Assembly (NCBI GenBank): GCA_963776545.1
Contig: CAVZND010000006.1
Coordinates: forward strand, 13,565 to 77,564
Length of the DNA: 64,000 bases
Direction: 5' to 3'
DNA from: an uncultured Chloroflexia bacterium
GTDB taxonomy: Bacteria; Chloroflexota; Limnocylindria; Limnocylindrales; CSP1-4
Part shown: piece after piece, positions 8,478 to 28,331 of the stretch
Layout: each line of letters opens with the position of its first letter
Position numbering within the stretch: the stretch's first letter is position 1
Translations under genes and position numbers: made by a program
Notes under the pieces: generated by a model
Told to the model about the DNA's origin: nothing
What the model saw: the letters and a program-made list of their open reading frames with translations, nothing else
The model's database searches: none

Positions 8478-8485
8478 GCCTCGCG

Positions 8486-10065: not shown

Positions 10066-10133
10066 CGCCCAACACCATCGGCCGCGATCGAACGGGACCG
10101 AAGGGCTATTCCCACCCTGACCTTCGGGCGCGC

Positions 10134-10409: not shown

Positions 10410-10469
10410 CCGGACGCACGCCGCCCGCCTGACCTCCCGCGCGAAGCCGTAGGCCGTAGGCTGTAGGCG

Positions 10470-10772
10470 ATGTCCCTGGCGACCGTCGACGACCTGATCG
10501 GACGCGCCCTCGAGGCCTACGCCGCGCTCGAAGCGCTCGGCGAGGAGATCGAGGACGAATGGACCTACGTCACCGACCTCGAGGCCGCCTGGCGAACCCG
10601 CCTCGACGAGGTCGCGGCCGCCCGCCGCGGTGAGACCCTCGTTCCGCCCATCGCCGCTGCGGTCGACCGGGCGATCGAGGAGATCGGCCTCGTGCGCGAC
10701 CCACATCGCGCGATCGACTGGCTCTCGACGTTCCCCCAGGTGGTGCTCGTCGCACTCGGGGAGGGAACGTGA
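10470..10772 (+). CDS. hypothetical protein (100 aa, acidic, helical)
   Basis: GC3-rich frame. GTGA overlap with the next gene indicates co-translation. No recognisable domain. Confidence 0.55.
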   Translation: MSLATVDDLIGRALEAYAALEALGEEIEDEWTYVTDLEAAWRTRLDEVAAARRGETLVPPIAAAVDRAIEEIGLVRDPHRAIDWLSTFPQVVLVALGEGT

Positions 10773-11443
10773 GGTTCCAGGATGCCGCCCGTGATGCCCG
10801 CGCGGTCGTCTACGCGGGCATCCAGGCCGATCCGTCCGTTGCCCAGGCGGCCGCCCTGCTCGCCGACGCGTCGCCGGCCCAACGGGTGCTGGCCCGGGCC
10901 GTGATGAACGGCGAGTCCACCGAACCGGGTGCGTGGCGCGTCATGTTCCCGACGCTCCTGGGGCCCGACGCGACGCAGGCGGACCGCGAGCGCGCCGAGG
11001 CGGTCCTCGCCGCCTCGCTGCGGGTCGCGGATCGCGGCGAACAGGTCCGCAGCCAGGTCCGTGGCGCGATCGTCGAGGCCGTCACCGCCGTGCTCCTGGC
11101 CCGTCGCGTCGGTCCCGATGCCGTGCGCCGCGAGCGCCGCATCCTGTTCGACGGCGTCGCCGCGGAGATCCATCCGTACGACGTGACCGTCGAACGCTCG
11201 GGCGCCGCCGAGGCGTACGACTGCAAGTGGGGCGCGCGCGGCATCGGGCCCGACGTCCTGAACCAGCTCGACGATGCGCGGATCCACGCGGCCGACGAAG
11301 ACGAGTCGCTGGCCGTCTGCCTGGTCGTGTTCGACGCCCGTCGGTCGTGCGAGGTCCGCCTCGACCGCCAGACCGCCCCGACCGCCGGCATCGACCTCGT
11401 GAGCCTCGAGTCGCTCGACCGGCTCGCCGACGCCCGTCCATGA
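10769..11443 (+). CDS. hypothetical protein with a possible PD-(D/E)xK nuclease-like motif
   Basis: 224 aa with GTG start. Contains IVEAV ... HPYDVTV ... EAYDCKWG, whose spacing is compatible with an E/PD/DxK core. Overlaps its neighbours by 4 nt at both ends. Confidence 0.5.
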   Translation: MRFQDAARDARAVVYAGIQADPSVAQAAALLADASPAQRVLARAVMNGESTEPGAWRVMFPTLLGPDATQADRERAEAVLAASLRVADRGEQVRSQVRGAIVEAVTAVLLARRVGPDAVRRERRILFDGVAAEIHPYDVTVERSGAAEAYDCKWGARGIGPDVLNQLDDARIHAADEDESLAVCLVVFDARRSCEVRLDRQTAPTAGIDLVSLESLDRLADARP

Positions 11444-13937: not shown

Positions 13938-14347
13938 GACCGTCCTCCGACGATGGCCCGGACGACATCGGTCGTCGAGATGATCCCGATGGGGGTCCGC
14001 CCGTCATCGGCCACGACGACGAGCCGGTGGACATGCGCCGACTCCATGCGCTGGATGGCCTCCGCGACGGGCGTGTCGGCCGAGACGGTCAGGGCGGGGG
14101 ACGTCATGAGGTGGCGCGCGGCGAGACCCGGCCAGCGCGACCAGAGGTCGTCCGTGGCACGGGCGCGGATGAGGTCCGTCCGGCTGATCACGCCGACGAG
14201 GTCGCCGTGCGCGTCGACCACCGGCATGCCGCTGACGTCTGCTCGCTCGATGAGATCGGCCACCTTGGGGAGCGGCGTATCCGCGTCCACCAGGATCGGA
14301 TCCCTGGTCATCAGGTCACGGACGAGTCCGTCGCTCGTATCCATCAC
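13934..14347 (-). CDS. CBS-pair (Bateman) domain protein
   Basis: 137 aa with two CBS motifs (VRDLMTRDPILV..., GMPVVDAHGDLVGVISRTDL, HRLVVVADDGRTPIGIISTTDV). ATGA overlaps at both ends. Confidence 0.85.
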   Translation of the reverse strand: MMDTSDGLVRDLMTRDPILVDADTPLPKVADLIERADVSGMPVVDAHGDLVGVISRTDLIRARATDDLWSRWPGLAARHLMTSPALTVSADTPVAEAIQRMESAHVHRLVVVADDGRTPIGIISTTDVVRAIVGGRS

Positions 14348-16323
14348 GAACCCTCCGCTGTCGGCCCGACGGCGATCAGCTCACTGTGTTGCCCTGGGAC
14401 GAGGCCGGTCACCGTGCCGGTCACGTCGATGACGTGGTCGTAGGCGGCCGCGACGACCGCGAGGTTCGCCTCGACGACCGCCCCTCCGCGCTTGCCGAAG
14501 AACCGTGCCAACTGGACCCGGACGGCGTCGAGCAGCGCCGAACGGTCGAGCCCGGCCTCGGTCGCGAACGGCGCGACCCGCAGGAACACCCCGACGAGGG
14601 CCACGCCCTGCATCCGGACGAGCAGGTCCGGCCGCGGGGCGTGCGCCCGGGCGAGGGCGATCGTGTCAAGCGCCCAGACATGGATCCCGCGGGCGAGGAT
14701 CTCCGCCCGGGCGGGGGCCGGGATGGCCGCCCAGATCTCGTCCGGGTGGACGATGGCGGTCTGCACGAAGAGCGATCCGCCGTCGACCAGGCCGTGCAGC
14801 GGGTCGCCCTGACGGAAGGCCGCCACGTCGTGGATCGGCACGAAGTCGACCGTGTCGAGTTCGGCGTGGGCGTGGATCGGCTCGTCCGCGATGATCAGGA
14901 AGTAGCTGGTCGGTAGCCCTTTCTTCTCGGAGCCGTAGCGCGGGTAGGCCTGCACGTGGCGCCCGAACGTCTCGCCGACCAGGGCCGCGAGCAGCTTGTT
15001 GGTCGTGACCGAGCCGAAGCCGCCGATCGAGTGCCCTCGCACCCGGAACGCGCCGTGGGGCATGAGGTCGACCGGGACGCGCTGCAGCGCCAGCGGGTGC
15101 TGGACCCCGAGCACGACGTGGCGACGGGTGTGGGCCTCGGGGTCGGCGAGCCAGTCGAAGCAGGCGACCAGGTCCCCCGGCGTGACGTCGCGGGACCCGA
15201 GGCCCGCCGACGCGGACATGACCCGCGGCATCGGCCAGCTGTCCGACGCCAGGTCGAAGAGGGCCGCCTTCACCTCACGGGTCAGCGGATTGCTCCCGGC
15301 GGCCGGGTCGTCGGTCCGCTCGACCACGCCGACCGTCCGAGCGCCATGAAGCGCGTGAGCCAGCGCCTCCGCCGGGAAGGGTCGGAACGCCGTGACCGTC
15401 ACGCTGCCGACGGTCCGTCCCTTCGCGCGCAGGTGGTCGACGACCGCGGCGGCGGTGTCGGCGAGCGTGCCCATGGACACGACGATCTCGGTGGCGTCCT
15501 CGCAGCGGTAGGCATCGATGGGCGCGTACGGGCGGCCGGTCAGCGACGTCCACGACGTCATCGCCGACTCGAGCGCCTCGGGCAGACGGTCGTAGAAGGC
15601 GCGCTGCCCGATCCGGCCCTTCATGTAGCTGTCCTGGTTCTGGACCACGCCGGTCATCAGGGCCTCACCAGGGTCGAAGTAGCTCCGGATGTGCTCGCGA
15701 GGATCGCCGACGAAGTCGCGCAGCAGGGCATCCTCGGGCAGGCGCAGGTCCTCGAGCGTGTGGGTCGTCAGGAAGCCGTCCTGGACGACGAAGAACGGGG
15801 TCTCGGTCTCCTCCGCCACCTTGCGCGCGATGGCCGTCAGGTCGGCGGCCTCCTGGGCGTTCCTCGCGAAGACCATGCCCCAGCCGGTGTCCGCGACGCC
15901 CATGACGTCGTCGTGGCCGGCGTGGATGTTGAGGGCCTGGCTCGTCAGCGCACGGGCGCCGACGTGGAACACCACGGGCAGGCGCTTGCCGGAGATGACG
16001 TAGAGGACCTCCTTCATGAGGATCAGGCCCTGGCCGGCCGTGAAGTTCACGACCCGCCCGCCGGCGAGGGCGAAGCCCTCCGCGGCGGACGCCGACGAGT
16101 GCTCGGACTCGGGCTCGATGAACTGGAGGCCGGTGCCCCACAGGTTGGTCCGGCCGTCGGCGACCGCCGCCTGGAAGATCGCCGCCATCGTGGTCGATGG
16201 CGTGATCGGGTAGGCGCAGGCCGCCTCGGCGATCCGCGTCTCGACGGAGGCGATCGCCTCCGACCCGTCGACGATGGCCCTGGTCCCGGGGAACGGCGGC
16301 GAGGCGGCGCCTGACCTGGTCAT
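14344..16323 (-). CDS. 2-oxoacid/pyruvate:ferredoxin oxidoreductase, N-terminal half (domains I-II-III: alpha plus gamma)
   Basis: 659 aa. Contains GSEAIA...AYPITPSTT, EHSSASAAEG, the domain III motif GFGSVTTNKLL and YGSEKKGLPT. Confidence 0.85.
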   Translation of the reverse strand: MTRSGAASPPFPGTRAIVDGSEAIASVETRIAEAACAYPITPSTTMAAIFQAAVADGRTNLWGTGLQFIEPESEHSSASAAEGFALAGGRVVNFTAGQGLILMKEVLYVISGKRLPVVFHVGARALTSQALNIHAGHDDVMGVADTGWGMVFARNAQEAADLTAIARKVAEETETPFFVVQDGFLTTHTLEDLRLPEDALLRDFVGDPREHIRSYFDPGEALMTGVVQNQDSYMKGRIGQRAFYDRLPEALESAMTSWTSLTGRPYAPIDAYRCEDATEIVVSMGTLADTAAAVVDHLRAKGRTVGSVTVTAFRPFPAEALAHALHGARTVGVVERTDDPAAGSNPLTREVKAALFDLASDSWPMPRVMSASAGLGSRDVTPGDLVACFDWLADPEAHTRRHVVLGVQHPLALQRVPVDLMPHGAFRVRGHSIGGFGSVTTNKLLAALVGETFGRHVQAYPRYGSEKKGLPTSYFLIIADEPIHAHAELDTVDFVPIHDVAAFRQGDPLHGLVDGGSLFVQTAIVHPDEIWAAIPAPARAEILARGIHVWALDTIALARAHAPRPDLLVRMQGVALVGVFLRVAPFATEAGLDRSALLDAVRVQLARFFGKRGGAVVEANLAVVAAAYDHVIDVTGTVTGLVPGQHSELIAVGPTAEGS

Positions 16324-16325
16324 GG

Positions 16326-17030
16326 CTAGCGGATCGACGGGAACACCAGGTCGTTCGCGTTCCCCTCGACCCGGCTGTCGTCGAGGATCCAGGAGAGCTC
16401 GGCGTCCAGGCGGATGACGCCCGGGACGACGGCGACGAGCCGCTCGATCAGTTCGGCGACGGACCGCGTCTCGGCCTGGCCGCGCATGCGGACGACCCCG
16501 TTGGTCACCGTGATGTCGAAGAGGACCGGATTGACGAGCAGGTGTCGCAGCAGGACGTCCTGGCGGATCGTCTCGGCGATCTGGTCGTCGGATCGAACGT
16601 AGGCCCGGATGAGGTCGGCCCGGGTGACGATCCCGACGAGGACGCCGTCCCGGGTCACCGGCAGTCGGTTGACGGCACGATCGACCATGATGGCCGCGGC
16701 GGCCGGCAGCGAGGCTTCCGGCGCGATCGTGATCGCGGGTGAGCTCATCGCCTCACCGGCGGTCGCCGCCTCGACCTTCGCGCGGGCCGACTTGGTCGAC
16801 TTCGACTCGCCGAGGACGCGCGCCCCGCGGCGATGCGGCAGCCCGTCGGCGCCGCGCTCCTTGATGAGAAGGTCGGCCTCGGAGACGACTCCGACGACGT
16901 GCTGATCGGCGTCGACGACCGGCAGGCCGCTGATCGCGCCCGCCACGAGGAGCCGCGCGACCTGCTTGAGTGGGGTGTCTGTGTGGACCGCCGTCACCGG
17001 CGCGGTCATGACGTCATGGACAGTCAACAT
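16326..17030 (-). CDS. CBS-pair plus BON domain protein
   Basis: ATG at 17030 is preceded by AGGAAGG. Two CBS motifs are followed by a BON-like C-terminus (ITVTNGVVRMRGQAETRSVAELIERLVAVVPGV). Its stop lies 2 nt before the por N-half start. Confidence 0.8.
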   Translation of the reverse strand: MLTVHDVMTAPVTAVHTDTPLKQVARLLVAGAISGLPVVDADQHVVGVVSEADLLIKERGADGLPHRRGARVLGESKSTKSARAKVEAATAGEAMSSPAITIAPEASLPAAAAIMVDRAVNRLPVTRDGVLVGIVTRADLIRAYVRSDDQIAETIRQDVLLRHLLVNPVLFDITVTNGVVRMRGQAETRSVAELIERLVAVVPGVIRLDAELSWILDDSRVEGNANDLVFPSIR

Positions 17031-17165
17031 CGTGGATACCAAGCCTTCCTGATGGGACCGTGCAGAGGTCGATCCCGAACCTGACTTTGCGCGTCGCTCG
17101 AGCCTCCAGGCAGGGTCGAAAGTCACTTTCCGACGGGCACTGCGGACGTCACCGACCGCGGCGGC

Positions 17166-17996
17166 TCAGAGCGTGGTGTTCGCGACAGCGAGGTTGCGGG
17201 ACGTGACCGCGGCCAGGCGCATCGCCTGGGTCGGCGTGAGCCGCCCGCAGACGCGGTCCCAGTGGATCGCGACGTCGTCGCCCGGCCGCAGGACGTCGCC
17301 GAACCCGTCGCCGGCCGCGATCGACAGGCGCTCGAGGCGTGGCAAGCCGAGGCGGAGTCGCCCATCGACCAGCTCGAGTGGCGGGAGCTCCACGTCGAGC
17401 GCGTCGGCGGCCGTGGACGCCACCCGTCCCGGTCGGACGAGGCAGCGCTCCAGCACGCCGATGAGGTCCGGCGGGAGGCCGCCGCGGATCAGTCCGATGC
17501 GCGGCAGGATCTCCAGCACGTGGAAGCTGTGATGGACGGCCGACGGGCCGTCGGCCTTCGCCTCGAGCCAGCGCCACTCGCGCTGCGACGCACGCCCTCG
17601 GAACCGCTCGGTCAGGTCGTCGTGCCGCGCCCGGGGCCCCACGCGATCGAGGAGGTCGTTGCCGAGCCAGTACGCCTCGACGACGCGGGCGTCCAGCGGG
17701 TCGGCGATGTCGTTCTCCGAGGCGATGAGCTCCAGGTACGGGTACGCGCCCTCGAAGCCCCGCGCGATCCGCGACAGCTCCGGATCCGGTCGCCCGGCCC
17801 TCACCCGCTCGGGCAGCGTCAGGCCGGACTCCGGCCCGCACAGCCCGAGGCGGTTCGGCGGGAAGGCGAAGCGCGCGAACAGGAGCGGTCCCGGGAGCCA
17901 GCACCCCACGAGCCCGTCGCGGCCGCGCTCGACGCCGGGCGCGGCGGCGCCCTCGCGCTCAGCGCGGTCCACGGCTGGCGCAAGGGCGACGGTCAC
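17166..17996 (-). CDS. conserved-looking hypothetical protein (276 aa) at the end of the hydrogenase operon
   Basis: GTG at 17996 overlaps the DMT transporter stop (GTGA). Sequence includes FPPNRLGLCGP, FEGAYPYLELIASEN, VVEAYWLGNDLL. I cannot assign a characterised family. Confidence 0.6.
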   Translation of the reverse strand: MTVALAPAVDRAEREGAAAPGVERGRDGLVGCWLPGPLLFARFAFPPNRLGLCGPESGLTLPERVRAGRPDPELSRIARGFEGAYPYLELIASENDIADPLDARVVEAYWLGNDLLDRVGPRARHDDLTERFRGRASQREWRWLEAKADGPSAVHHSFHVLEILPRIGLIRGGLPPDLIGVLERCLVRPGRVASTAADALDVELPPLELVDGRLRLGLPRLERLSIAAGDGFGDVLRPGDDVAIHWDRVCGRLTPTQAMRLAAVTSRNLAVANTTL

Positions 17997-18934
17997 GCCG
18001 CGACCTCGCCCGTCGATCCGGTGCCCGGCAACGCCCGACGGCGACCGGCCGCCGTCAGGGCGACGAGTCCGACGCCGAGGGCCAGCAACGCGAGGCCGGC
18101 CACCGCGGTGGGCGCCGGGACGGTGCCCGCGCGGACCGAGGTCAGCGCCGCCGTGACGAGCGCGCCACCGACGAGGACCGAGGTCACGAGGCTCGCCGGG
18201 GCACGCTGCAGTGCGGCATACCAGGTCGTGACATAGCCGAGGAGCAGGACGCCGGTCGCGGCGACGATCGCCCACTGCCCCGCGGAGAACGCGGCGATGG
18301 CGCCCAGTCGACCCGACGCCACGAGGAACCCGACGATGATCACCGCGCCCAGCGCCATCCGGGCGGTCGTCGCGAGCCCGACGCTGACGCGATCCTCGCC
18401 CAGGAGTCGACGGGCGATGACGACCTCGGCCGACCAGAGCAGCGTGGCGGCCAGGATCATGATCTCGGCCGGTCCGACGCCGATCGAGCCGGTCGGCCCG
18501 ATAAGCATGACGCCGCCGAACAGCGCGATCAGCGCGATCACCTGGGCGAGCCCGAGCGATTCGCGCAGGAACACGACGGCCAGGCCGGCGACCCAGATGA
18601 AGAGGGTCTTGTGGATCAGCGCGGCTCCGGGTCCCGTCGCCTCGGCGAGCCCGCTGAAGAACAGGATGAACGGCACGCTCCCGCCGATGAGCGCGATGGC
18701 CGCGAGGCCCGCGGCGTCCGTCCGGCGCAGGGACGCCACCTCGCGGGCACCGCCCCGCGCGACCAGGAGCCCGAGCAGGACGAGGCCGACGAGCAGGTTG
18801 CGGGCGCCGGTCAGGGCGACGGGGTCGCTGAACTCCTTGACGACGAGCCCGTTGACGAAGATCGAGAGGCCGGAGATCGTGGCCGTGGCCGCGGCCAGCG
18901 CGATGCCCCATCCGGTCGTGCGCGGGATCGACAT
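17993..18934 (-). CDS. EamA/DMT-superfamily transporter
   Basis: 313 aa with ~10 hydrophobic helices in the duplicated EamA-like pattern. Confidence 0.75.
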   Translation of the reverse strand: MSIPRTTGWGIALAAATATISGLSIFVNGLVVKEFSDPVALTGARNLLVGLVLLGLLVARGGAREVASLRRTDAAGLAAIALIGGSVPFILFFSGLAEATGPGAALIHKTLFIWVAGLAVVFLRESLGLAQVIALIALFGGVMLIGPTGSIGVGPAEIMILAATLLWSAEVVIARRLLGEDRVSVGLATTARMALGAVIIVGFLVASGRLGAIAAFSAGQWAIVAATGVLLLGYVTTWYAALQRAPASLVTSVLVGGALVTAALTSVRAGTVPAPTAVAGLALLALGVGLVALTAAGRRRALPGTGSTGEVAA

Positions 18935-18943
18935 GATGTCCTC

Positions 18944-19192
18944 CTAGGGTGTGGATCGGTCAGCGGGAAGGACCTGCGTCCGCAGGGCCGGGGGTCGTTG
19001 GATCGCGTCGAGGGCCGCCTCGTCGTCCGGCGCGACACGCCCGAGGACGACCCCGAGGCCGACGAGGACGAGGTCACCCGGGACGAGGTCCGGGACCATC
19101 AGTGACAGTGCGTTGCGCCGGACCTCGCCGAGGTCGACGACGGCCATGCCATCCTCGACGGCGACGACCCGGCCGACGGTGGTCCGGCACAT
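18944..19192 (-). CDS. hypC: HypC/HupF-family hydrogenase assembly chaperone-like protein
   Basis: 82 aa. N-terminal Met-Cys (MCRTTVGRVVAV), then the DG.AVVD...GDLVLV...G pattern typical of HypC. Confidence 0.7.
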   Translation of the reverse strand: MCRTTVGRVVAVEDGMAVVDLGEVRRNALSLMVPDLVPGDLVLVGLGVVLGRVAPDDEAALDAIQRPPALRTQVLPADRSTP

Positions 19193-19195
19193 CGG

Positions 19196-19720
19196 TCAGG
19201 CCTCCCGACCCGGCGCGCGGGCCGCCGCGACCGGATCGGCCAGGCGATCGAGCGCCGAACCGATGGCCGTGCCGAACGCCGGCATCGCAGCACGGGCGGC
19301 GACCGACAATGCGGCGCCGTACCCGAACTCGCCGCCGGCGAGGCCGATGAAGCGGCCGTCGATGGGTCCGCCGCGCAGGATCGCCGCCAGGCGCACGACC
19401 AGGTCGATCGGCAGCTGATGCGACGAGCGCGGCGTGAACCCGGGCTGCTCGGTCAGTTCGTCGAGCGACAGCTCGACGATCGAGCCCGGCTCGACCCCGA
19501 CGACCGCGTCGAGGATGAGGCACGACCCGCCCGCGGGGAGCTCGACGAGGTCCTCGACGCGCAGCTCCAGGCAGCGCAGGACGTTCAGGCGCGCGAGCAG
19601 CTCGGCCGAGAGGGTCGGCATGAGCGCTGCGACCGTCGCGGCCGCGACGCCGTCGTCGCCGCGATCGGCATTCCCGCAGACGATGACCTGGACGAGGGGT
19701 TCGACGAGGGCTGTCGTCAT
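19196..19720 (-). CDS. hydrogenase maturation endopeptidase (HyaD/HycI/FrhD family)
   Basis: 174 aa from the ATG at 19720 (ATGA overlap with the large-subunit stop). Contains VIVCGNADRGDDGVA, ILDAV and SSHQLPI. Confidence 0.8.
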   Translation of the reverse strand: MTTALVEPLVQVIVCGNADRGDDGVAAATVAALMPTLSAELLARLNVLRCLELRVEDLVELPAGGSCLILDAVVGVEPGSIVELSLDELTEQPGFTPRSSHQLPIDLVVRLAAILRGGPIDGRFIGLAGGEFGYGAALSVAARAAMPAFGTAIGSALDRLADPVAAARAPGREA

Positions 19721-21033
19721 GGCGCGGCCTCGATCGTCAGGTCCAGGAAGTGGGTCGCGCACGAGATGCACGGGTCGTAGCTCCGGATCAGCTGCTCGAG
19801 CCGATGGGTCGCGACGTCGTGGGGCAGGTCGAGGATGGCCGGTGCGAACGCGGCCATGTCGGCCTCGATGGCGACCTGGTTCTGGCTCGTCGGCGGGACG
19901 ATGCTGGCGGTCGCGATCCGCCCGCGATCGTCGAGTTCGTAGTGATGGAACAGCAGGCCGCGCGGGGCTTCGGTCGCCCAGGCGGCCGTGCCAGGCCCCG
20001 GTGTCCACGGCTGGGCGGCGCGGTCCGGCTCGACGTAGCCGTCGACGATGTCCATGGCCTCGGCGACCGCGTGCACCAGCTCGATGGCCCGGGCGGCGAT
20101 GCTCCGATACGGGTTGCGCCGGATCGCATCGGCGAGACCGATCCGGTCGAGCGCGGCCCGCGCCTGGGGATGCAGCTGATCAGCCGCCAGGGTGATCCGG
20201 GCCGCCGGGCCGAGGAGGTACGGGACCCGATCGGGCATGCGCGCCTGGAGTGCGTGCGACCAGGGGACCTGCTCCTCGTGGAAGACCGCCTCCCAGTCGG
20301 TCGGGGCGAGATCGACGCCGTCGGACGACACGATCCGTCCGTCGTTCATCGGGTATTCGGACGGATGTCGCAATGAGACGAAGCGCTCGTCGCGCTCGAA
20401 GTCGGGTGTCGTGAACGTCGCGACCCAGTCGACCGTCTCGATGGCCCGCTTGAGGGAAGCCTCCAGGTCGCTTCGCAGGACCTCGAGCTCGCGCCTGGCG
20501 GGGACCTTCGAGAACCCGCCGACCCGGACGCTGACGGGATGGATGGGTCGGCCACCGAGGATCGCCACGATCCGGTTGCCGGTCTTCTTGAGGGCCAGGC
20601 CGCGCTCGACGGCCGCCTTGTCGAGGGCGGCGAGCTCGACGGCGTTGGCACAGCCGAGGAAGTCGGGCGCGTGCAGCAGGTAGAGGTGCAGCGCGTGGCT
20701 CTCGATCCATTCGCCGCAGTACAGCAGTCGACGCAGCGACCGCACCGAGGGCTCGATCGTCACCCCGGCCAGGTCCTCGAACGCGTGCACCGCGGACATC
20801 TGGTAGGCGACCGGGCAGATCCCGCAGATCCGCGCGACGATGTCGAGGACCTCGTCCGGCGTCCGGCCGACGACGAGTCGCTCGAAGTACCGCGGGGCCT
20901 CGAAGATCGCGAGCTGGGCCTCGTCGACCCGACCGTCGCGCACGACCAGGCGGAGCGAGCCCTCGCCTTCGACGCGGGTCAGCCCGGCGACCTCGAAGCG
21001 CCGCTCGACGCCCGTGACGTTGGTGCCATGCAT
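19717..21033 (-). CDS. hyhL: [NiFe] hydrogenase large subunit, cytoplasmic group 3 (3b-like)
   Basis: 438 aa. RVEGEG near the N-terminus, L1 motif RICGICPVAY, L2 motif DPCISCATH followed by a short cleavable tail FLDLTIEAAP. Confidence 0.9.
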   Translation of the reverse strand: MHGTNVTGVERRFEVAGLTRVEGEGSLRLVVRDGRVDEAQLAIFEAPRYFERLVVGRTPDEVLDIVARICGICPVAYQMSAVHAFEDLAGVTIEPSVRSLRRLLYCGEWIESHALHLYLLHAPDFLGCANAVELAALDKAAVERGLALKKTGNRIVAILGGRPIHPVSVRVGGFSKVPARRELEVLRSDLEASLKRAIETVDWVATFTTPDFERDERFVSLRHPSEYPMNDGRIVSSDGVDLAPTDWEAVFHEEQVPWSHALQARMPDRVPYLLGPAARITLAADQLHPQARAALDRIGLADAIRRNPYRSIAARAIELVHAVAEAMDIVDGYVEPDRAAQPWTPGPGTAAWATEAPRGLLFHHYELDDRGRIATASIVPPTSQNQVAIEADMAAFAPAILDLPHDVATHRLEQLIRSYDPCISCATHFLDLTIEAAP

Positions 21034-21863
21034 CAGGTCTTCCCTCCGCCCGGACCGGCGACCGGCGGCCCACCCAGGGCGTCGATGACCTCCCGGAATG
21101 GCCGGGCCGACGCGGTGAAGCCCGAGAAGAGCCGGGCGACGTCGGCGTCCGAGCGACCGTCACGTCCGAACCATCGGGCGAGACTGGCGGCGTTCGCCGC
21201 CTCGCGCGGCCCGAAGCATCCGTAGCAGCCGCGCGCGAAGGCCGGGCACAGGGCACCGCAGCCGGTCTGGGTCACCGGGCCCAGGCACGGCCCGGCCCCG
21301 GTCACGAGCACGCAGACCGTCCCGCGCCGCTTGCACTCGAGGCAGACCGATTCGTCCGGCAGCTGCGGCCGACGACCGACGACGAGCGCCGTCAGCAGCT
21401 CGAGCAGCTGGCCGGGGTCGATCGGGCAGCCGCGAAGCTCGGCGTCGACGGCGACATGGTCGGCGATCGGCGTTGACGTGGCGAGGGACTCGACGTATTC
21501 GGGATGCGCGTAGACCGCCGCCCGGTACGCATCGTGGTCGCCCCAGTTGCGGAGCGCCTGGATCCCGCCCGCGGTGGCGCAGGCGCCGATCGTCACGAGC
21601 AGGGGCGTCTCCTGTCGGATGCGCAGGATCTCCTCGGCCTGCTCGGGCGTGCTGATCGAGCCCTCGACCAGGACGATGTCGAACGGACCCGACGAGCGAT
21701 ACGAGGACGCCTCGGCGAACTCAACGAGGTCGAACCGCTGGAGCAGGTCGAGCAGGTTGTCCTCGAGGTCGAGCAACGTCAGTTGGCAACCGTCACACGA
21801 GGCGAACTTCATGACGCCCAGCCGTGGCCGCGACCGGATGCTGGCTCGGGCCGCGCCGGTCAT
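21033..21863 (-). CDS. hyhS: [NiFe] hydrogenase small subunit (NuoB-like), group 3
   Basis: 276 aa from the ATG at 21863 (TGATG junctions at both ends). Contains KFASCDGCQ, GACATAGG, and a C-terminal Cys-rich FeS region CLECKRRGTVC ... CGALCP ... GCYGC. Confidence 0.85.
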   Translation of the reverse strand: MTGAARASIRSRPRLGVMKFASCDGCQLTLLDLEDNLLDLLQRFDLVEFAEASSYRSSGPFDIVLVEGSISTPEQAEEILRIRQETPLLVTIGACATAGGIQALRNWGDHDAYRAAVYAHPEYVESLATSTPIADHVAVDAELRGCPIDPGQLLELLTALVVGRRPQLPDESVCLECKRRGTVCVLVTGAGPCLGPVTQTGCGALCPAFARGCYGCFGPREAANAASLARWFGRDGRSDADVARLFSGFTASARPFREVIDALGGPPVAGPGGGKT

Positions 21864-23866
21864 CAGAGCCCCTCTTGGCCGAAGGCCGGGCCGAGCTCCT
21901 CGAGCGAGAAGACCGGGCCGTCGCGGCAGACGAAGGCCTTGCCGAGCTGGCAATGGCCGCACAGCCCGACCCCGCACTCCATGTGCCGCTCGAGCGTGAC
22001 GAAGATTCGATCGTCGGTGACCCCGCGGTCACGGAGGACGCTGACGGTTGCCTCCATCATCCGTTCCGGGCCGCAGATGAACGCGACGGCGCCGGGACCG
22101 TCCAGATGGCCCTGATCGAAGAGACTCGTGACGACGCCGACGCGCCCGAACCAGTCCGGCCCGGCGCGGTCGACGATCTGCCCGACGTCCAGGTCGGGAC
22201 GGGCGGCGAGGTCGGATAGCTCCTCGACGTAAAGGCGGTCGGCCGGGCTCCTGGCGCCGTACAGCAGCCGGATCTCGCCGAACCGGATGCGATCGGCCAG
22301 CAGCGCGTCCATGAGCGGCCGCAGGGGTGCGAGGCCGATCCCACCCGTCACGACGACGACATCGTGGCCGGCGGCCGCATCGACCGGCCAGCCCCGGCCC
22401 ATCGGGCCGCGCAGGCCGAGCGAGTCGCCGCGGCGGAGGCCGCACAGCGCTCGGGTGGCGGCCCCGGCTGCGCGGATCGTCAATTCGAGACCGTCCGGGT
22501 GGAACCTCGAGACGGAGATGGGCGCGGCCGAGAAGGCCGGCAGCGCGGCCATCACGAATTGGCCGGGCCGGCCCGCTCGGAGTGCCGGATCGTCGGTCTC
22601 GAGCCGCAGGGTGACCGTGTCGTGCGTCTCGCGCCGGTGTTCGACGACGAAGGCCCGCGCGTAGGTCGGCGGCGGCTCGGCCGGGTCGGGCAGGGCCACC
22701 GACGCGAGCTGGAAGGCCGGACTCGGGTCGAGCCGGATCGGCTCCACGTCGGCGTCGGGCGGCGGTGCCACCGCCAGCAGCTCCTCGCGGACGTCGATGC
22801 CGACCGGGCACCACGTGATGCAGCGGCCACAACCGACGCAGCCGGACATCCCGAACTGATCCCACCACGTGCCGAACTTGTGCGTCAGCCACTGCCGGTA
22901 CCGGTCCTGCACGCGCGGGCGGAAGTTCCCGCCGGCCACGCGGGCGAACCCGAGCGTGAAGCAGCTGTCCCAGGTCCGCTCGGCCACGGCGTCGATGCCG
23001 TCGAGGTCCGAGACCTGGGTGACCCCGGTGCAGAAGCAGGTCGGACAGACGAGCGTGCAGTTGGCACAGGCGAGGCAGCGCTCGGCGATCTCCGCCCAGC
23101 GCGGGCTGTCCGCCGCGGCGATGAGCCGAGCCGGGAGTCCCGCGGTCGGGACCGGGTCGCCGATCCGATCGCGCGCGGCCGCGACGGCGCCGCTGGCCTC
23201 GGACCGTTGCCCCTCGCTGGCGGGCGACAGGTCGAGGCGTGCCAGCAGGTCGTCACCGGCGGCCGAGCCGGCACGGACGACGAACCCGTCGTCGAGCTCG
23301 GTCATCGCGAGGTCGAACCCGGTCGTCACTTCCGGGCCGGTGCCCATGGACGTGCAGAAGCACGTGTCGGCGGGCGTCACGCACTCGACCGCCACGATGA
23401 AGGCTGCCGCCCGTCGGGCCGTGTAGTCGCGGTCGATGGCCGGTCCGTGCGCGAGGACGGCATCCTGTGTCAGCAGCGCGGCGATCTCGCATCCTCGGAC
23501 ACCGAGGAATGCCACCGGTGGGACCGGTGGCATCGCGTCCTCGAAGGTGGCCTGACCCTCGACCCGTCGGCCGAGGGTGATCGGAACGCGGGGCGGGAAT
23601 GTCTCCTGTTTCCAGGCCGTCGGACCGACCGCGTAGTCGAATTGGCGCTCCGTCCCCGTCTGCCGGAGCCGGTACGTGCCGGGCGCCTGGTCGGCCGTCC
23701 AGCCGGCAGGCAGTTCGGCCGACGACCGGATCTCCGCGTAGACGATGGCGCCGCCGCTGGCCGTCGGCCCGATGATCCGCCGGCCGTCTTCGGCGAGCAG
23801 GTCGAGCAGGTGGTCGAGGTCGCTCCGCGGCAGGAAGCCCGGGGCGGCACGGACGTCGGTCACCAT
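21863..23866 (-). CDS. fused hydrogenase beta-gamma diaphorase subunit (AsrA/HydB-like 4Fe-4S domain plus HydG/AsrB-like FAD/NAD(P)-binding domain with C-terminal 2Fe-2S)
   Basis: 667 aa. Contains CLACANCTLVCPTCFC and CVGCGRCITWCP, then a PyrK-like half with VVVTGGIGLAPL and CGVGLCGHCQ. Confidence 0.85.
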   Translation of the reverse strand: MVTDVRAAPGFLPRSDLDHLLDLLAEDGRRIIGPTASGGAIVYAEIRSSAELPAGWTADQAPGTYRLRQTGTERQFDYAVGPTAWKQETFPPRVPITLGRRVEGQATFEDAMPPVPPVAFLGVRGCEIAALLTQDAVLAHGPAIDRDYTARRAAAFIVAVECVTPADTCFCTSMGTGPEVTTGFDLAMTELDDGFVVRAGSAAGDDLLARLDLSPASEGQRSEASGAVAAARDRIGDPVPTAGLPARLIAAADSPRWAEIAERCLACANCTLVCPTCFCTGVTQVSDLDGIDAVAERTWDSCFTLGFARVAGGNFRPRVQDRYRQWLTHKFGTWWDQFGMSGCVGCGRCITWCPVGIDVREELLAVAPPPDADVEPIRLDPSPAFQLASVALPDPAEPPPTYARAFVVEHRRETHDTVTLRLETDDPALRAGRPGQFVMAALPAFSAAPISVSRFHPDGLELTIRAAGAATRALCGLRRGDSLGLRGPMGRGWPVDAAAGHDVVVVTGGIGLAPLRPLMDALLADRIRFGEIRLLYGARSPADRLYVEELSDLAARPDLDVGQIVDRAGPDWFGRVGVVTSLFDQGHLDGPGAVAFICGPERMMEATVSVLRDRGVTDDRIFVTLERHMECGVGLCGHCQLGKAFVCRDGPVFSLEELGPAFGQEGL

Positions 23867-24339
23867 GGTTCATCGACCGGATGGGAGAAAAGGTCGAGGA
23901 GCTGCATGCGGGTGGCGACGAGGCGGCTCGCCAGGGCGGCCAGCAGCGATCGGTAGACGGCCGCGGCGAGGACCGGATCGGCATCGAGCTCGGCCCGCAG
24001 GGCATCGCCATCGAGCAGGGCGAGCTCGGTCGGCGCGAGCGCGACCACGGTCGAGGTGGCTCGGTGCGGTGGCACGACCACCGACCATCCGATGATGTCT
24101 CCCTCCTCGACGGTCAGGATGGAGGTCGCGCCGCGCTCCGGGACACGGAGGCGCAGCGCCACCCGGCCCCGGATGACGATGCCGAGGTCGCGGGTGGGAT
24201 CGCCCTCGCGCAGGATCTCGGTTCCGGCCGCATACGACGCCGTGCGGATGAGCGCGTCCAGCCTCGCCACCGCCGCCTCGGGCAGGCTCGCCCCGAACGA
24301 TGTGCCGCGCAGCGACGCGGACTGCCTTCCGTCGATCAT
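23860..24339 (-). CDS. stand-alone cyclic-nucleotide-binding (cNMP/Crp-type effector) domain protein
   Basis: ATG at 24339 is preceded by GGAAAGG. Beta-roll sequence GTEILREGDPTRDLGIVIRGRVAL...EEGDIIGWS. No HTH follows. The stop overlaps the start of the beta-gamma gene by 7 nt. Confidence 0.75.
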   Translation of the reverse strand: MIDGRQSASLRGTSFGASLPEAAVARLDALIRTASYAAGTEILREGDPTRDLGIVIRGRVALRLRVPERGATSILTVEEGDIIGWSVVVPPHRATSTVVALAPTELALLDGDALRAELDADPVLAAAVYRSLLAALASRLVATRMQLLDLFSHPVDEPW

Positions 24340-24573
24340 CGGGGACACCCTTTCCTTGTGACCCAACGGTAGGGACGGACCGCGCAGGGGTTCTCATGCC
24401 GTTCGGCCCGAAAACTCGGCCAGACGTCACAAGCGCGACACGACGCGCCAGTCCGCGGGCCGGATGGCCCCCGATGTGGTGACCGGGGACCGATGTACGC
24501 GCCGGTCGTCTGACGCACGCTCATCGAGGACTCGACACATGGTCGTGCCCATCGTGAAAGGAGCGGAGTCGCC

Positions 24574-24975
24574 ATGAAGCGGATCCTGCTGGCCTATGAC
24601 GGCACCGAACCGGCGCGTAGAGCGCTCGAGACGGCCGCCGACCTGGCCAAGAAGTACGAAGCGAGCGTGACCGTCGTGAGCGTCGTCCCGGTGCATCCAG
24701 GCCGCGCCCCGATCGATCCTTGGGATGACGTCGAGGTCCACGACGCCCAGCTGCGTGAGGCCGACCTGGCGCTTCGGGCGCTCGGCATCGAAGCCAAGCT
24801 GCTGGAGCCCGCCGGAGATCCGGCATCGTCCATCGAGCGGGTGGCTGCCAAGGGCGAATTCGACATGATCGTCATCGGAGCCCGGGGTCTCAGCACGATC
24901 GGGCGGATGCTGCAGGGCAGCGTCTCGGCCCACGTGGCGACCCACGCCCAGACCGACGTCGTCATCGTCCGCTGA
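24574..24975 (+). CDS. universal stress protein (UspA family)
   Basis: 133 aa. Reads ILLAYDGTEPARRAL ... MIVIGARGLS...GSVS..V......DVVIV. SD is AAAGGAG. Confidence 0.85.
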   Translation: MKRILLAYDGTEPARRALETAADLAKKYEASVTVVSVVPVHPGRAPIDPWDDVEVHDAQLREADLALRALGIEAKLLEPAGDPASSIERVAAKGEFDMIVIGARGLSTIGRMLQGSVSAHVATHAQTDVVIVR

Positions 24976-25066: not shown

Positions 25067-26218
25067 ATGGGAGCGGAGCAGGGCGGCGACGCCGTTTCGG
25101 GCGGGTCGACGGATACCGACGAGCGCCCGGGATCGGCCGGCCGGCGGGCCCCGTCGGTCACGACCATGCGCGACATCGCGGCCGCCGCCGGCGTCTCGCA
25201 GAGCACGGTGTCGCGCGTCCTCAATGACGTCTCCACGAGGGTCCCGATCGCGCCCGAGACGCGCGAGCGCGTCATCCTGACGGCGCGCCGGCTGGGGTAC
25301 CGTCCGAACCCGCTCGCGCGCGGCCTGCGAGGCGCGCCGACGATGCTGCTCGGGGCCGTGGTCCGGGACTTCAGCGACCCCTTCTTCGCCGGGGCGATCG
25401 AGACGCTCGCGGTCGAGGCGATGGGGAGCGGCTACAACGTCGTCCTCGGCCACGCGCACGGCCGGCTCGAGGAGGAGATCTCGTTGCCGGCGGTCATCGA
25501 GACCCGGCACTGCGACGCGATCGTGATGCTCGGCGACATGCAGGACCAGCCCCGCCTGCTCGAGGACCTCCGGAACTCGATGGTGCCCGTGGTCGCGCTC
25601 TGGCAGGGTTCGAGTCCGCTGGAGTTCCCGACGGTCGACGTGGACAACCATGCCGGCATCTTCGCCGGGCTGGAACACCTGGTCGGGTTGGGCCACGAGC
25701 GGATCGCCTTCGTCAGCGGGCAGCTGCCGGGTGACAACCCGCAGCGTCTCGACGCGTTCGTCGAGTTCATGACCGACCGGTTCGGGGGCGTCCGCCAGGG
25801 CTACATCCAGCACGTCCCCAATTCCATGGCCGGCGGCGAGGCGGCCCTGGCGGCCCTGCTCGAATTGGCGGACGCGCCGACCGCGCTCGTGACGTCGACG
25901 GACCTCGTGGCTGTCGGCGTCCTCCACGCCGCCTACAGCCGCAACCGGGTCGTGCCCGACGAGCTTTCGGTCGTCGGATACGACGACATCCCGATCGCCG
26001 CCCACACGGTGCCCGCCCTGACCACGCTCCGGATGCCGATCCCGGAGGTGACCGGCGAGGGGGTCCGGCTCGCCATCCAGTTCGCTCGCGATGCGTCGCT
26101 CGAGCAGGAGGCGAACGTGACTCTCTTCGAGCCGACCCTCGTCGTTCGGCAGTCGACGGCGCCGCCCGCGACATCTGCCCGGAGGGTCGCGCAGCGCGCC
26201 TCGGCGCCGGTCGCCTGA
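25067..26218 (+). CDS. LacI-family transcriptional regulator
   Basis: HTH TMRDIAAAAGVSQSTVSRVLN, then a periplasmic-binding-like sugar domain. An alternative start lies near 25166. Confidence 0.85.
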   Translation: MGAEQGGDAVSGGSTDTDERPGSAGRRAPSVTTMRDIAAAAGVSQSTVSRVLNDVSTRVPIAPETRERVILTARRLGYRPNPLARGLRGAPTMLLGAVVRDFSDPFFAGAIETLAVEAMGSGYNVVLGHAHGRLEEEISLPAVIETRHCDAIVMLGDMQDQPRLLEDLRNSMVPVVALWQGSSPLEFPTVDVDNHAGIFAGLEHLVGLGHERIAFVSGQLPGDNPQRLDAFVEFMTDRFGGVRQGYIQHVPNSMAGGEAALAALLELADAPTALVTSTDLVAVGVLHAAYSRNRVVPDELSVVGYDDIPIAAHTVPALTTLRMPIPEVTGEGVRLAIQFARDASLEQEANVTLFEPTLVVRQSTAPPATSARRVAQRASAPVA

Positions 26219-26233: not shown

Positions 26234-28090
26234 TCAGGCCTCGGGGGTGGCCGCCTCGATCGGCTCGCCGGCTCGCACCGGGATCCAGACCCGCATCCCG
26301 CGCACCGTCCGGTGGGCCCACGAGGCGTACGGCACCGCGCCGACCTCGATCGCCCTCCCCGTCGCGGAATCGATCGCCGGCATCGTGATCCCCAGCGGGG
26401 CACCCGGAACGTCGTCGCGTGCGACGACGACCGGCTTGACCGATGGCGAGAGGACGACCGCCTCGAGGTCGGTGCCGTCGGGCAGGTCGGCCGTCTCGAC
26501 GCAGAAGACGATCGGTCCGCGTTCGATGGCGACGCAGCCGCGGATCGCGTCGATGCGGGGATCCGGCTCGGTCACGCGGACGGGCATCTCGAGCGACAGG
26601 ACGACCCGGTCGCCGGCACGCCAGGCGCGAGTCTCCTGGACCACCCGGGCCCCATCGGCGACCGGCGCAGGCTCGTTCGACCCGATCCGGAGCGCCGCCG
26701 ACCGGCTCCAGGCCGGGATCCGCATCGACAGGGTCCACGGGCGCTCCGGGGCCTCCTCGACGGTCACGGCGATCTCGCCGCTCCACGGGTAGTCGGTGTC
26801 GACCGCGAGGCGGACGGAGCCGCCGGCGACCTCGACGTGGAACGACGCCGTCGCGTACTGATGGAGCTGGATCCCATCCGCATCGGCCGTCGCGAGGTAT
26901 TGCTGCCAGGAACTGAGCGTGCGCATGACGTTCGGTGGGCAGCAGGCGCAGGGGAACCACGGCTGGCGCTCACCGGTGCCCGAGGTGGCAGCCGCGCCGT
27001 TGGTCCGCCGCTGGAGCGGGTTCACATAGAAGAACTCGGTCCCCGCGGCCGACACGCCGGACAGGACCCCGTTGAACATCGTCCGCTCGATGACGTCGGC
27101 GCAGTCCGGATCGCCCGTCGCGAGCAACAGCCGCCAGGCGAGCATCACGCTCGCGATCGCCGCGCAGGTCTCGGCATATGCCCGGTCGGGCGGCAGTTCG
27201 AACGGATCGCCGATGGCTTCGTCGCTGTGTCGGCTGCCGACCCCCCCGGTGAGGTAGCTCCGCGTGGCGACCAGGTCGCGCCAGCGGCGCAGGACCGCGT
27301 CGAGCAGCGCCTGATCGCCCAACTCGACGGCGACGTCGACCGCGCCACAGTCGAGGTACAGCTGGCGGACGGCGTGACCCGTGGGAGTCGGCGCCTCGCG
27401 CACGGGCGCGTGATCCTGCCAGTAGGCCGACCCGAAGCGACCGGTCCCGAGCAACCCATGGCCACGCAGGTCGATCATCCGCGCGGCCAGGTCCAGGTGC
27501 CGCCGATCGCCGGTCGTGCGGTACAGCTCGACCAGGGCCATCTCGATCTCCGGATGCCCGTCGATGGCGTCCCGCCCGCCCGGGCCGAGCTCGTGCTCGA
27601 CCGAGTCGACCGCACGCAAGGCGATGTCGAGCAATCGGTCGTCGCCCAACGCCCGATGCCAGGCGACCGCCGCCTGGACGAGGTGCCCGACGTTGTACAG
27701 CTCGTGGCCCCACGCGAGGTCTCGATAGGTCTCGCCGCCGCCGACGACCTGGACGTAGCTGTCGATGTAGCCGTCCGGACGTTGGGCCGCGGCCACGAGG
27801 CCGATGACCTCGTCGGCCTCGCGGGCGAGCTCGGGGTCCGGCGCCCGGCCGAGTTCCCAGCCGACGGCCTCGAGCCACTTGTAGACGTCGGTGTCGAGGA
27901 ACGGGTAGATCACCCCGAGGGGTTCGCTCAGCGCCCGATACCGGCCCGGCTGTCCCGCGGCCATACGCAGATTGGCGAAGTTGCCGACGCGGTCGAGTTC
28001 GGCGAAGCCATGTCCGATCGTGCGCTCGCGATTGGTCCGGACCCGGTCGGCCCACAGGCCGCCGGTCATGGTCACGTCCGGCGCGCTCAT
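26234..28090 (-). CDS. glycoside hydrolase family 127 (beta-L-arabinofuranosidase, DUF1680-type)
   Basis: 618 aa from the ATG at 28090. Contains DTDVYKWLEA, GHELYNVGHL and DGHPEIEMALVELY, a typical GH127 N-terminal (alpha/alpha)6 region. Confidence 0.75.
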   Translation of the reverse strand: MSAPDVTMTGGLWADRVRTNRERTIGHGFAELDRVGNFANLRMAAGQPGRYRALSEPLGVIYPFLDTDVYKWLEAVGWELGRAPDPELAREADEVIGLVAAAQRPDGYIDSYVQVVGGGETYRDLAWGHELYNVGHLVQAAVAWHRALGDDRLLDIALRAVDSVEHELGPGGRDAIDGHPEIEMALVELYRTTGDRRHLDLAARMIDLRGHGLLGTGRFGSAYWQDHAPVREAPTPTGHAVRQLYLDCGAVDVAVELGDQALLDAVLRRWRDLVATRSYLTGGVGSRHSDEAIGDPFELPPDRAYAETCAAIASVMLAWRLLLATGDPDCADVIERTMFNGVLSGVSAAGTEFFYVNPLQRRTNGAAATSGTGERQPWFPCACCPPNVMRTLSSWQQYLATADADGIQLHQYATASFHVEVAGGSVRLAVDTDYPWSGEIAVTVEEAPERPWTLSMRIPAWSRSAALRIGSNEPAPVADGARVVQETRAWRAGDRVVLSLEMPVRVTEPDPRIDAIRGCVAIERGPIVFCVETADLPDGTDLEAVVLSPSVKPVVVARDDVPGAPLGITMPAIDSATGRAIEVGAVPYASWAHRTVRGMRVWIPVRAGEPIEAATPEA

Positions 28091-28160
28091 CGGGGACAGG
28101 GTCGAGATCGCCGAGCGGCAGGGCAGCACGACGCTCACGGACGCGCGGCTCGTCCCGGTC

Positions 28161-28331
28161 TCAGACGCCACGGTCGAGGAAGTAGTAGGCATGGTTCCAA
28201 CGGAGCTCCCGTTTGAGGCAGGCGGCGATCCGGCCGGCATGCTCGTCGACCTGCCGCAGCACGTCATCGCCGTACAGCCGCTGGCTGCCGGTCACGAACC
28301 ACACCTCGAGCTCGGGCAGGCCTCTGCTCAC
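28161..28331 (-). pseudogene. araA: remnant of L-arabinose isomerase (araA): only the first ~36 codons are retained
   Basis: GTG at 28331 is preceded by GGAGG. The translation MSRGLPELEVWFVTGSQRLYGDDVLRQVDEHAGRIAACL matches the AraA N-terminus (E. coli [21 protein letters not shown]). It then diverges and stops after 56 codons. It is below the size cut-off of the ORF track. Confidence 0.7.

Follow-up and report, generated by a model that had tools for sequence, protein, structure and literature searches.

Group 3b [NiFe] hydrogenases are among the most widespread hydrogenases of soil and aquatic bacteria, and their biochemistry rests on the archaeal four-subunit enzymes and on Mycobacterium smegmatis Hyd3, all without a gene for a cyclic nucleoside monophosphate (cNMP)-binding protein. 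Such a gene stands at the head of an eight-gene hydrogenase operon at positions 17166-24339 of the stretch analyzed here, a 64-kb piece of contig CAVZND010000006.1 (hereafter the window). The question raised by this locus is what a small protein of the cyclic nucleotide-binding (CNB) fold does beside a 3b hydrogenase. The answer regarded as fairly probable is that the window encodes a group 3b hydrogenase, a CNB-fold accessory partner on its beta part, and maturation helpers that include a protein of family DUF6390. The parts worth experimental follow-up are the putative, widely conserved fifth component and the HypC-like DUF6390.

Operon Structure

All eight genes were on the minus strand, and the open reading frame (ORF) listing together with start-codon inspection confirmed the co-directional arrangement, sizes and junctions that had earlier been read from the letters alone (the original prediction). 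From first to last they were:

23860-24339, minus strand: stand-alone CNB-fold ("cNMP-binding") protein, 159 aa (PF00027); 7-nt overlap with the beta-gamma gene
21863-23866, minus strand: fused beta-gamma diaphorase subunit, 667 aa (Pfam, NCBIfam, PDB alignment)
21033-21863, minus strand: small (delta) subunit, 276 aa (Pfam Oxidored_q6; NCBIfam ShyD 5.8e-47, HydD 1.4e-43)
19717-21033, minus strand: large (alpha) catalytic subunit, 438 aa (NiFeSe_Hases; RICGIC and DPCISCATH)
19196-19720, minus strand: hydrogenase maturation endopeptidase, 174 aa (TIGR00072 6.3e-16, over its cutoff); ATGA overlap with the large subunit
18944-19192, minus strand: small HypC/HupF-type chaperone, 82 aa (PF01455, HupF_HypC, 1.7e-11)
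17993-18934, minus strand: EamA/DMT-family membrane transporter, 313 aa (PF00892, two repeats)
17166-17996, minus strand: DUF6390 protein, 276 aa (PF19927 1.7e-68)

The junctions, in the same order, were a 7-nt overlap, TGATG, TGATG, ATGA, a 3-nt gap, a 9-nt gap and GTGA, with TGATG at either end of the gene for the small subunit, which contains 12 Cys. The sequence AAGGAAAGG sat ahead of the ATG of the cNMP gene. Domain assignments by Pfam and NCBIfam agreed with those of the original prediction. The identical eight-gene order was found in loci L001 and L002, and also in L083 and L084, whose DUF6390 was only ~50% identical; because the order recurred at such distance, the arrangement is not a product of chance, and the synteny that the original prediction presupposed was kept in these four relatives. 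The eight genes form a genuine operon of a soil Chloroflexota bacterium and encode a [NiFe] hydrogenase that is predicted to be NAD(P)-linked and to reside in the cytoplasm.

Class of the Hydrogenase and Fusion of Its Diaphorase Subunits

The large subunit carried RICGIC at residues 68-73 and DPCISCATH at residues 420-428, followed by a 10-residue tail (FLDLTIEAAP); these match the RxCGxC and DPCxxCxxH NiFe-ligand motifs expected of a group 3b large subunit. Among NCBIfam models, ShyA (4e-78) and HydA (5e-67) ranked above frhA (7e-41) and VhuA (3e-39), with group 1 models also well below, and the scores did not reach the cutoffs of these archaeal equivalogs, as is to be expected of a bacterial enzyme. 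The best PDB matches were 5yxy_A and 9nez_D (alpha subunit of the Thermococcus/Pyrococcus cytosolic sulfhydrogenase, ~1e-58), and those to Mvh (5e-44) and to the NAD-reducing enzyme (3e-43) were weaker.

In the 667-aa protein, Pfam placed Fer4_22 at residues 263-357 and FAD_binding_6, NAD_binding_1 and DHODB_Fe-S_bind at residues 407-658, and NCBIfam matched both HydB/ShyB and HydG/ShyC. The beta chain of Pyrococcus furiosus sulfhydrogenase I (SHI; 9nez_B) aligned on residues 106-359 and the gamma chain (9nez_C) on residues 412-656, with a Pro-rich linker at approximately residues 360-410. Since the two chains aligned in that order, the fusion runs from beta to gamma through the linker, in support of the HydB-HydG fusion originally proposed. 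An AsrA-like Fe-S beta module and an AsrB-like FAD/NAD(P)/[2Fe-2S] gamma module were encoded as one ORF with delta and alpha, the subunit set of group 3b. Judged by these features of its sequence, the enzyme is a group 3b [NiFe] hydrogenase, in support of the group-3b-like assignment of the original prediction.

The nearest genomic relatives were Chloroflexota/Limnocylindria metagenome-assembled genomes (85-86% identity), and many further relatives were labeled Limnocylindria. The enzyme would be a bidirectional, NAD(P)-linked group 3b hydrogenase that works in the cytoplasm of a Limnocylindria-like Chloroflexota and has three or four helper genes of its own. By homology, the NiFe site is in alpha, and delta passes electrons via Fe-S clusters to the single beta-gamma polypeptide, in which the beta part has further [4Fe-4S] clusters and the gamma part has the sites for FAD, NAD(P)H and a [2Fe-2S] cluster.

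The alpha, delta, beta and gamma modules, the large-subunit motifs and a dedicated endopeptidase were shared with P. furiosus SHI and SHII (HydBGDA/ShyBCDA) and with M. smegmatis Hyd3 (Hyh, MSMEG_3931-3927). The latter also resembled the window operon in that its hyp genes are encoded elsewhere and in its hypoxia- and stress-linked context. Unlike the Pyrococcus and M. smegmatis enzymes, that of the window has beta and gamma in one polypeptide, and its operon carries a CNB-fold gene ahead of beta-gamma, which those operons do not have, and a HypC-EamA-DUF6390 tail after the protease.

Fold and Ligand Site of the CNB Protein

The sole Pfam match of the 159-aa protein was PF00027. Its AlphaFold2 (AF2) model (predicted local distance difference test, pLDDT, 89) showed a beta-roll and then one long C-helix (residues 122-152) that ended the chain, without the C-terminal helix-turn-helix (HTH) that follows the CNB domain and C-helix in CRP/FNR proteins; the claim that the first gene encodes neither a DNA-binding nor a catalytic domain was thus borne out. 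Foldseek matched the model to stand-alone CNB proteins and to the N-terminal halves of GlxR and of Mycobacterium tuberculosis CRP. The 240 closest homologues all had PF00027 only, and almost all were 150-180 aa long.

Alignment with Escherichia coli CRP placed GDFIG71-E72 opposite GDIIG84-W85 of the window protein, and R82-S83 opposite A94-T95, a mapping consistent with the AF2 secondary structure. A reading in which G80-D81 and R93 stand for the Gly-Glu and Arg of the cassette was rejected on the same alignment and model, the true equivalents being G84-W85 and A94. The canonical cassette (Gly-Glu for the ribose 2'-OH, Arg-Ser/Thr for the phosphate) was absent. Position 85 was W in 28 of 30 sequences from operons of the window's gene order (type I, defined below) and W, V or L in most from the alternative order (type II); at position 94, type I sequences had A, S or G, and 29 of 33 sequences of type II had W. 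Because both hallmark contacts, Glu and Arg, are replaced, canonical binding of cAMP or cGMP is unlikely.

The end of the C-helix carried the motif RLxATRxQLLDx[FY], near-invariant from Chloroflexota to Proteobacteria and more conserved than the ligand pocket. Since such conservation is unusual for a CRP-type dimerization helix, it suggests a conserved protein-protein contact at this end of the chain.

Distribution of the cNMP Gene

The comparative set comprised 80 related loci, and the upstream region was assessable in 70 of them. The cNMP gene was present in 67 of these 70, from at least eight phyla, and in every case adjoined beta; 35 loci had the order cNMP-beta::gamma and the other 32 had beta-cNMP-gamma. 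This frequency rules out a peculiarity of the window. Beta::gamma was a single ORF in 34 related loci, the few exceptions being frameshift-ridden assemblies, and two Pirellulaceae loci had the type I order with unfused genes. The cNMP gene and the beta-gamma fusion are thus traits of whole lineages and not of one genome, as the original prediction had taken them to be; both co-occurred with 3b hydrogenases in relatives, a point that it had raised for checking.

Type I operons (cNMP, fused beta::gamma, delta, alpha, protease) accounted for essentially all Chloroflexota loci. Type II operons (beta, cNMP, gamma, delta, alpha; 32 loci) occurred in Alphaproteobacteria, Acidobacteriota, Verrucomicrobiota, Planctomycetota (Jettenia), Nitrospinota and Ilumatobacteraceae (Actinomycetota being among the phyla covered), and the beta-cNMP-gamma order was also found on plasmids of Rhodococcus, Streptomyces and Burkholderia.

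A CNB protein of this kind might be a CRP/FNR-type sensor without a DNA-binding domain of its own, controlling the operon indirectly through cAMP or cGMP by titrating or partnering a DNA-binding protein. Its fold and its nearest solved structures, which are CRP-family N-domains, would suit that role, as would the first place of the gene in the window operon, the conserved DNA block upstream of it (described below) and its name of small transcriptional regulator, given in databases and in a Frankia paper to the gene between the diaphorase genes (PMC11879354). However, the window protein has no HTH and none of its 240 closest homologues has any domain other than PF00027, the canonical cNMP contacts are replaced, and a natural fusion to beta exists. 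In most phyla, moreover, the gene is lodged between the two diaphorase genes, translationally close to them, a position that argues for stoichiometric co-expression. Indirect control of transcription is considered improbable.

Variant arrangements were also recorded. In four Chloroflexota loci (L038, L039, L041 and L042; ~10001-11310 in each) a large-subunit paralogue, 59-60% identical, had no beta, gamma or small-subunit gene detected within 10 kb; a protease gene lay 1-2.5 kb downstream of it in L038, L041 and L042, L039 had no protease match, and the ORFs checked around L038 yielded no Pfam hydrogenase partners. A second beta-gamma copy directly followed the protease at L027:11930-13876, L028:11892-13839 and L024:2566-3984, which would give two diaphorase modules per operon. 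In L011, L022 and L025 the maturation protease (~5750-6530) was upstream of the cNMP gene and not after the large subunit, and in L011 another hydrogenase small/large pair lay at a distance, at 2052-3379.

Probable Association of the CNB Protein With the Beta Subunit

A profile search for the CNB family in 1.8 billion representative sequences returned mostly ~155-aa proteins, plus P0410 (542 aa), which by Pfam is a beta subunit (Fer4_22) fused to a full CNB module. The beta::cNMP fusion was full-length on two independent contigs (P0410 and P0510, 542 aa; L086:2924-5393 and L087:1739-4199). In this lineage (~49% G+C) the fusion gene was followed by a free cNMP gene (153 aa) and then by gamma, giving two CNB modules per operon. 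Tandem-duplicated single-chain CNB versions also exist (P0362). No fusions were found among the 240 closest homologues, and P0404 (363 aa), a candidate cNMP-gamma fusion, was rejected as an out-of-frame read-through.

The beta::cNMP fusion and the universal adjacency to beta argue for a physical partner, probably a dimer, and the CNB-fold protein is probably attached to the hydrogenase as a partner of the diaphorase. It appears to have lost the CRP/FNR DNA-binding domain and the canonical cNMP contacts, and would dock, probably dimeric and by way of its long, highly conserved C-helix, on the beta part of the diaphorase. There it may act as an accessory or regulatory subunit, by analogy functionally like HoxI2 on HoxFU in the soluble hydrogenase (SH) of Cupriavidus necator. 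If it has a ligand, NAD(P)H or another non-canonical nucleotide is likelier than cAMP or cGMP. The original prediction had seen an allosteric subunit or sensor of the hydrogenase; the association with the enzyme rather than with transcription stood, through the adjacency to beta, the fusion and the precedent of HoxI, and the sensing of cyclic nucleotides became doubtful, given W85 and A94.

Comparison With HoxI and Earlier Mentions of the Gene

In the group 3d soluble hydrogenase of Ralstonia eutropha/C. necator H16 (HoxHYFUI2), HoxI sits as a dimer on the diaphorase module and leaves HoxFU at high ionic strength (PMC3189943). HoxI and the window CNB protein are alike in being stand-alone CNB domains of ~160 aa without HTH, in being encoded in the operon of a cytoplasmic NAD(P)-linked hydrogenase and in lacking the canonical Arg. 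They differ in the cassette, where HoxI keeps Gly-Glu and the window CNB family has Gly-Trp, and in gene position and partner: HoxI is encoded by the last gene of hoxFUYHWI and is a partner of the Complex-I-type HoxFU, whereas the window protein goes with an AsrAB-type beta-gamma.

Scored with the hidden Markov model (HMM) of the window family, HoxI reached 52 bits, as compared with 131-193 for members and 36 for E. coli CRP. In BLASTP, HoxI (pHG1) and the window protein shared a 48-residue patch only, and a tblastn search of plasmids with the window protein did not bring up pHG1; orthology was ruled out on these three grounds. HoxI and the window CNB family look like independent recruitments of the CNB fold to different diaphorase types, and by analogy the window protein probably works like HoxI. 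For two HoxI traits, dimeric co-purification with the diaphorase and NADPH-dependent activation, the window family offers an indirect counterpart in the beta::cNMP fusion with its free second copy and in the tandem duplicates.

The 3b-linked cNMP gene is already named in three papers, as annotation without analysis or experiment: besides the Frankia paper, a 2025 paper labels it 'HoxI' (PMC12319191) and a Rhodococcus equi paper lists it (PMC13332983). Frankia Francci3_4499, WP_013415449.1 of R. equi 103S and the gene of the methanotroph 'Methylocapsa acidophilus' 29 belong to the window CNB family and the same operon type, with the difference that their order is beta-cNMP-gamma and their subunits are unfused, unlike in the window operon. 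A plasmid homologue of Rhodococcus sp. DK17 scored 131 bits with the family HMM.

Subunit or Assembly Factor

The CNB protein could alternatively be an assembly or maturation factor for beta or beta-gamma, acting in Fe-S or flavin loading or in module docking and absent from the mature enzyme. This explanation draws on the same adjacency and fusion evidence as a subunit does; the core enzyme is functional without the CNB protein in archaea and in M. smegmatis, and several maturation genes are already present in the operon. A permanent fusion to beta (P0410, P0510) would nevertheless leave the CNB module on the mature protein, and the tandem-duplicated and fused-plus-free forms suggest a fixed dimeric architecture. 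No CNB fold is known to serve as an Fe-S or flavin chaperone. An assembly role is judged unlikely, although a better candidate than a transcriptional one.

Several results weigh against a CNB partner of the hydrogenase. Operon adjacency and one fusion lineage are equally compatible with an assembly factor, and the case for attachment of the CNB protein to a 3b hydrogenase is comparative rather than biochemical. HoxI is by its sequence not an orthologue, so that the analogy with it is functional only. Arg93, one residue before the canonical Arg position, was present in ~76% of the family members, so that some nucleotide binding is possible. P. furiosus SHI and M. smegmatis Hyd3 (MSMEG_3931-3927) have no cNMP gene and work as four-subunit enzymes, and L009, L036 and L043 had none within 10 kb, which indicates that the gene is dispensable. 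Because archaeal enzymes, M. smegmatis Hyd3 and these three loci do without it, the CNB-fold protein would be an accessory that is not required for the core reaction.

A more far-reaching version of the subunit reading, tentative and well short of probable, is that most bacterial 3b enzymes have the CNB protein as a true fifth subunit, which was recruited independently of HoxI, sits as a dimer on beta and exerts allosteric control of H2/NAD(P)H exchange through a small nucleotide ligand (a second messenger bound non-canonically or, as has been proposed for HoxI, NAD(P)H), and that DUF6390 is a Hyp-type maturation factor not recognized before, composed of a HypC domain and a metal-binding helical domain, that serves several [NiFe] groups. 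Should the CNB protein prove to be a subunit or to switch the enzyme allosterically, most bacterial 3b enzymes would be regulated complexes of five components, with post-translational control of what they do in hypoxia, methanotrophy, nitrite oxidation and symbiosis. The comparative data offer handles in the form of cultivable carriers of the beta-cNMP-gamma order (Methylocystis parvus, Enhydrobacter aerosaccus, Rhodococcus sp. DK17 and Frankia casuarinae), the natural beta::cNMP fusion and the conserved C-terminal motif.

Probable Maturation Genes and a Transporter Gene at the End of the Operon

The endopeptidase would cut the 10-residue tail off alpha after metal insertion. The small HypC (PF01455, 44.5 bits vs. 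a cutoff of 28.5) starts with MC, keeping Cys2, and has no equivalent of His51, reading ..LVLVGLG.. where the HypC of E. coli and C. necator have ..VLVHVG... The replacement of this His extended across the window lineage, with VHVG changed to VGLG, VGAG or VAAG. HypA, HypB, HypD, HypE and HypF of pHG1 (the C. necator megaplasmid), used as tblastn queries, had no counterpart in the window, in agreement with the absence of these hyp genes claimed originally; their sole match was an acylphosphatase-like patch at 9796-9993, which resembles the N-terminus of HypF but is not HypF.

The invariant residues of DUF6390 were C53, H156, H159, C185 and H245. Its hhalign alignment with HypC (94.4% probability, E 9e-8) covered residues 185-265, from Cys2 onward, and paired C185 with Cys2 and H245 with His51. 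The AF2 model (pLDDT 86.8) consisted of an N-terminal helical domain, a small beta-barrel and a C-helix, and its top Foldseek PDB hit was Thermococcus kodakarensis HypC (2z1c_B, probability 1.00, TMt 0.63); Foldseek gave no PDB match for the helical N-terminal domain. The C-terminal domain had the HypC-homologous OB-barrel and C-helix, including the essential Cys and His. With HypC/HupF/HybG, DUF6390 shares these C-terminal 90 residues, which align from Cys2 to the C-helix and whose predicted OB-barrel and helix match 2z1c; it differs from them in its 185-residue helical domain with invariant Cys and His of its own, HypC proteins being 70-100 aa long with Cys at position 2. Because its Cys is internal, at 185, and not at position 2 of a ~80-aa protein, DUF6390 is HypC-like but not a member of the HypC family.

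DUF6390 homologues with 35-37% identity were located inside hyp clusters on plasmids of Mycobacterium and Sulfobacillus. The cluster on the Mycobacterium intracellulare plasmid (NZ_CP012886.2; DUF6390 at L088:8971-9726) read hypF-hypC-hypC-SIS-hypE-hypC-hypD-DUF6390, and that on the Sulfobacillus acidophilus plasmid (CP003180.1; L089:8974-9747) read hypF-hypC-x-hypD-hypE-tatA-DUF6390 beside a group 1 hydrogenase; the hydrogenases beside DUF6390 were non-3b in both. In the mycobacterial cluster there was also a 236-aa protein that carries a HypC-like annotation and is extended at its N-terminus. A search of the available literature library found no paper mentioning DUF6390.

From its sequence relationships, model and gene context elsewhere, DUF6390 is very probably a maturation factor of [NiFe] hydrogenases, so far unrecognized, that contains a HypC-like module. 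Two features weigh against this: the Foldseek E-value of the HypC match was weak (0.016) despite the probability of 1.00, and the HypC-type Cys is internal (C185 of 276) and not at position 2. Its HypC-like domain and its homologues in hyp clusters point to chaperoning of the Fe(CN)2CO cofactor or of the large subunit and not to metal import; of the metal or cofactor supply originally suggested for the tail genes, the cofactor and chaperone side thus gained support for DUF6390, and metal import did not. A chaperone role for the Fe(CN)2CO group or the apo-large subunit would fall to the small HypC and to the HypC-like domain of DUF6390, both of them dependent on hypDEF and hypAB genes at other sites of the genome. 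The small HypC, without His, and the HypC-like domain of DUF6390, which retains it, may be complementary.

The tail genes might instead be lineage-specific passengers, with EamA and DUF6390 unconnected with the hydrogenase. The HypC-EamA-DUF6390 tail occurred in type I operons only and was missing from many Chloroflexota loci too, and the type II operon of Methylocystis parvus stops at the protease. EamA transporters are generic metabolite carriers; NCBIfam assigned the EamA protein of the window to no specific family, and there was no EamA gene near DUF6390 in the Mycobacterium and Sulfobacillus contexts. The EamA gene was kept between HypC and DUF6390 in L001, L002, L007, L009, L013, L016, L017, L044, L083 and L084, and this position is conserved in the window lineage only. 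Set against a passenger status, the order of the three genes, with overlapping or abutting junctions, was retained down to ~50% identity (L083, L084), the HypC-like domain of DUF6390 lines up with HypC at the functional Cys and His, and DUF6390 occurs within hyp clusters of two other phyla beside different hydrogenase groups. Passenger genes are considered quite unlikely. The placing of DUF6390 in HypC-related maturation machinery gives an uncharacterized family a testable function and may help in the heterologous production of [NiFe] hydrogenases.

Upstream Block and Neighboring Genes

The region 5' of the operon and the genes immediately downstream of it contained the following features:

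24364-24430, minus strand: conserved non-coding block 5' of the cNMP gene, GTGACGTCTGGC...GGGCCGAACGGCA...CCTACCGTTG; shared with L001 and L002
16326-17126, minus strand: CBS-BON protein, downstream of DUF6390
14344-16323, minus strand: 2-oxoacid:ferredoxin oxidoreductase alpha-gamma gene
13934-14347, minus strand: CBS-pair protein
12219-13937, minus strand: thiamine pyrophosphate (TPP)/ferredoxin beta-delta gene (2-oxoacid:ferredoxin oxidoreductase)

The block of 67 nt was conserved with L001 and L002, and the flanking intergenic DNA had diverged; from this conservation, the block is a possible promoter or operator. In this region of 72% G+C, a consensus scan for sigma-70 promoters and terminators gave no matches, and an inverted-repeat search and Rfam gave nothing useful. 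Further upstream and divergent from the operon was a universal stress protein (USP) gene (24574-24975), and then a gene for a LacI-type regulator.

The four tightly packed downstream genes (12219-17126), on the same strand as the operon, followed a gap of 39-135 nt, and their junctions abutted or overlapped. They may be co-expressed with the hydrogenase. The CBS-BON/oxidoreductase/CBS set had no synteny in L083 or L084; in its stead, relatives had genes for phosphoketolase, acetate kinase and Usp in the neighborhood. Hyd3 of M. smegmatis is a low-oxygen-induced enzyme (PMC2799521). The stress, CBS and oxidoreductase neighbors, the phosphoketolase and acetate kinase of the relatives and the hypoxic induction of Hyd3 together suggest that the hydrogenase would operate when oxygen is limiting, in redox balancing or in the H2 metabolism of fermentation.

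Elsewhere, the window between 7900 and 11500 had 74-76% G+C and long overlapping ORFs on both strands, of which those at 7898-10078 and 10565-11287 had no Pfam matches. Unrelated neighbors were an NYN-domain protein (633 aa) at 6576-8477, the LacI-family regulator at 25067-26218 and a GH127 beta-L-arabinofuranosidase-like protein at 26234-28267.

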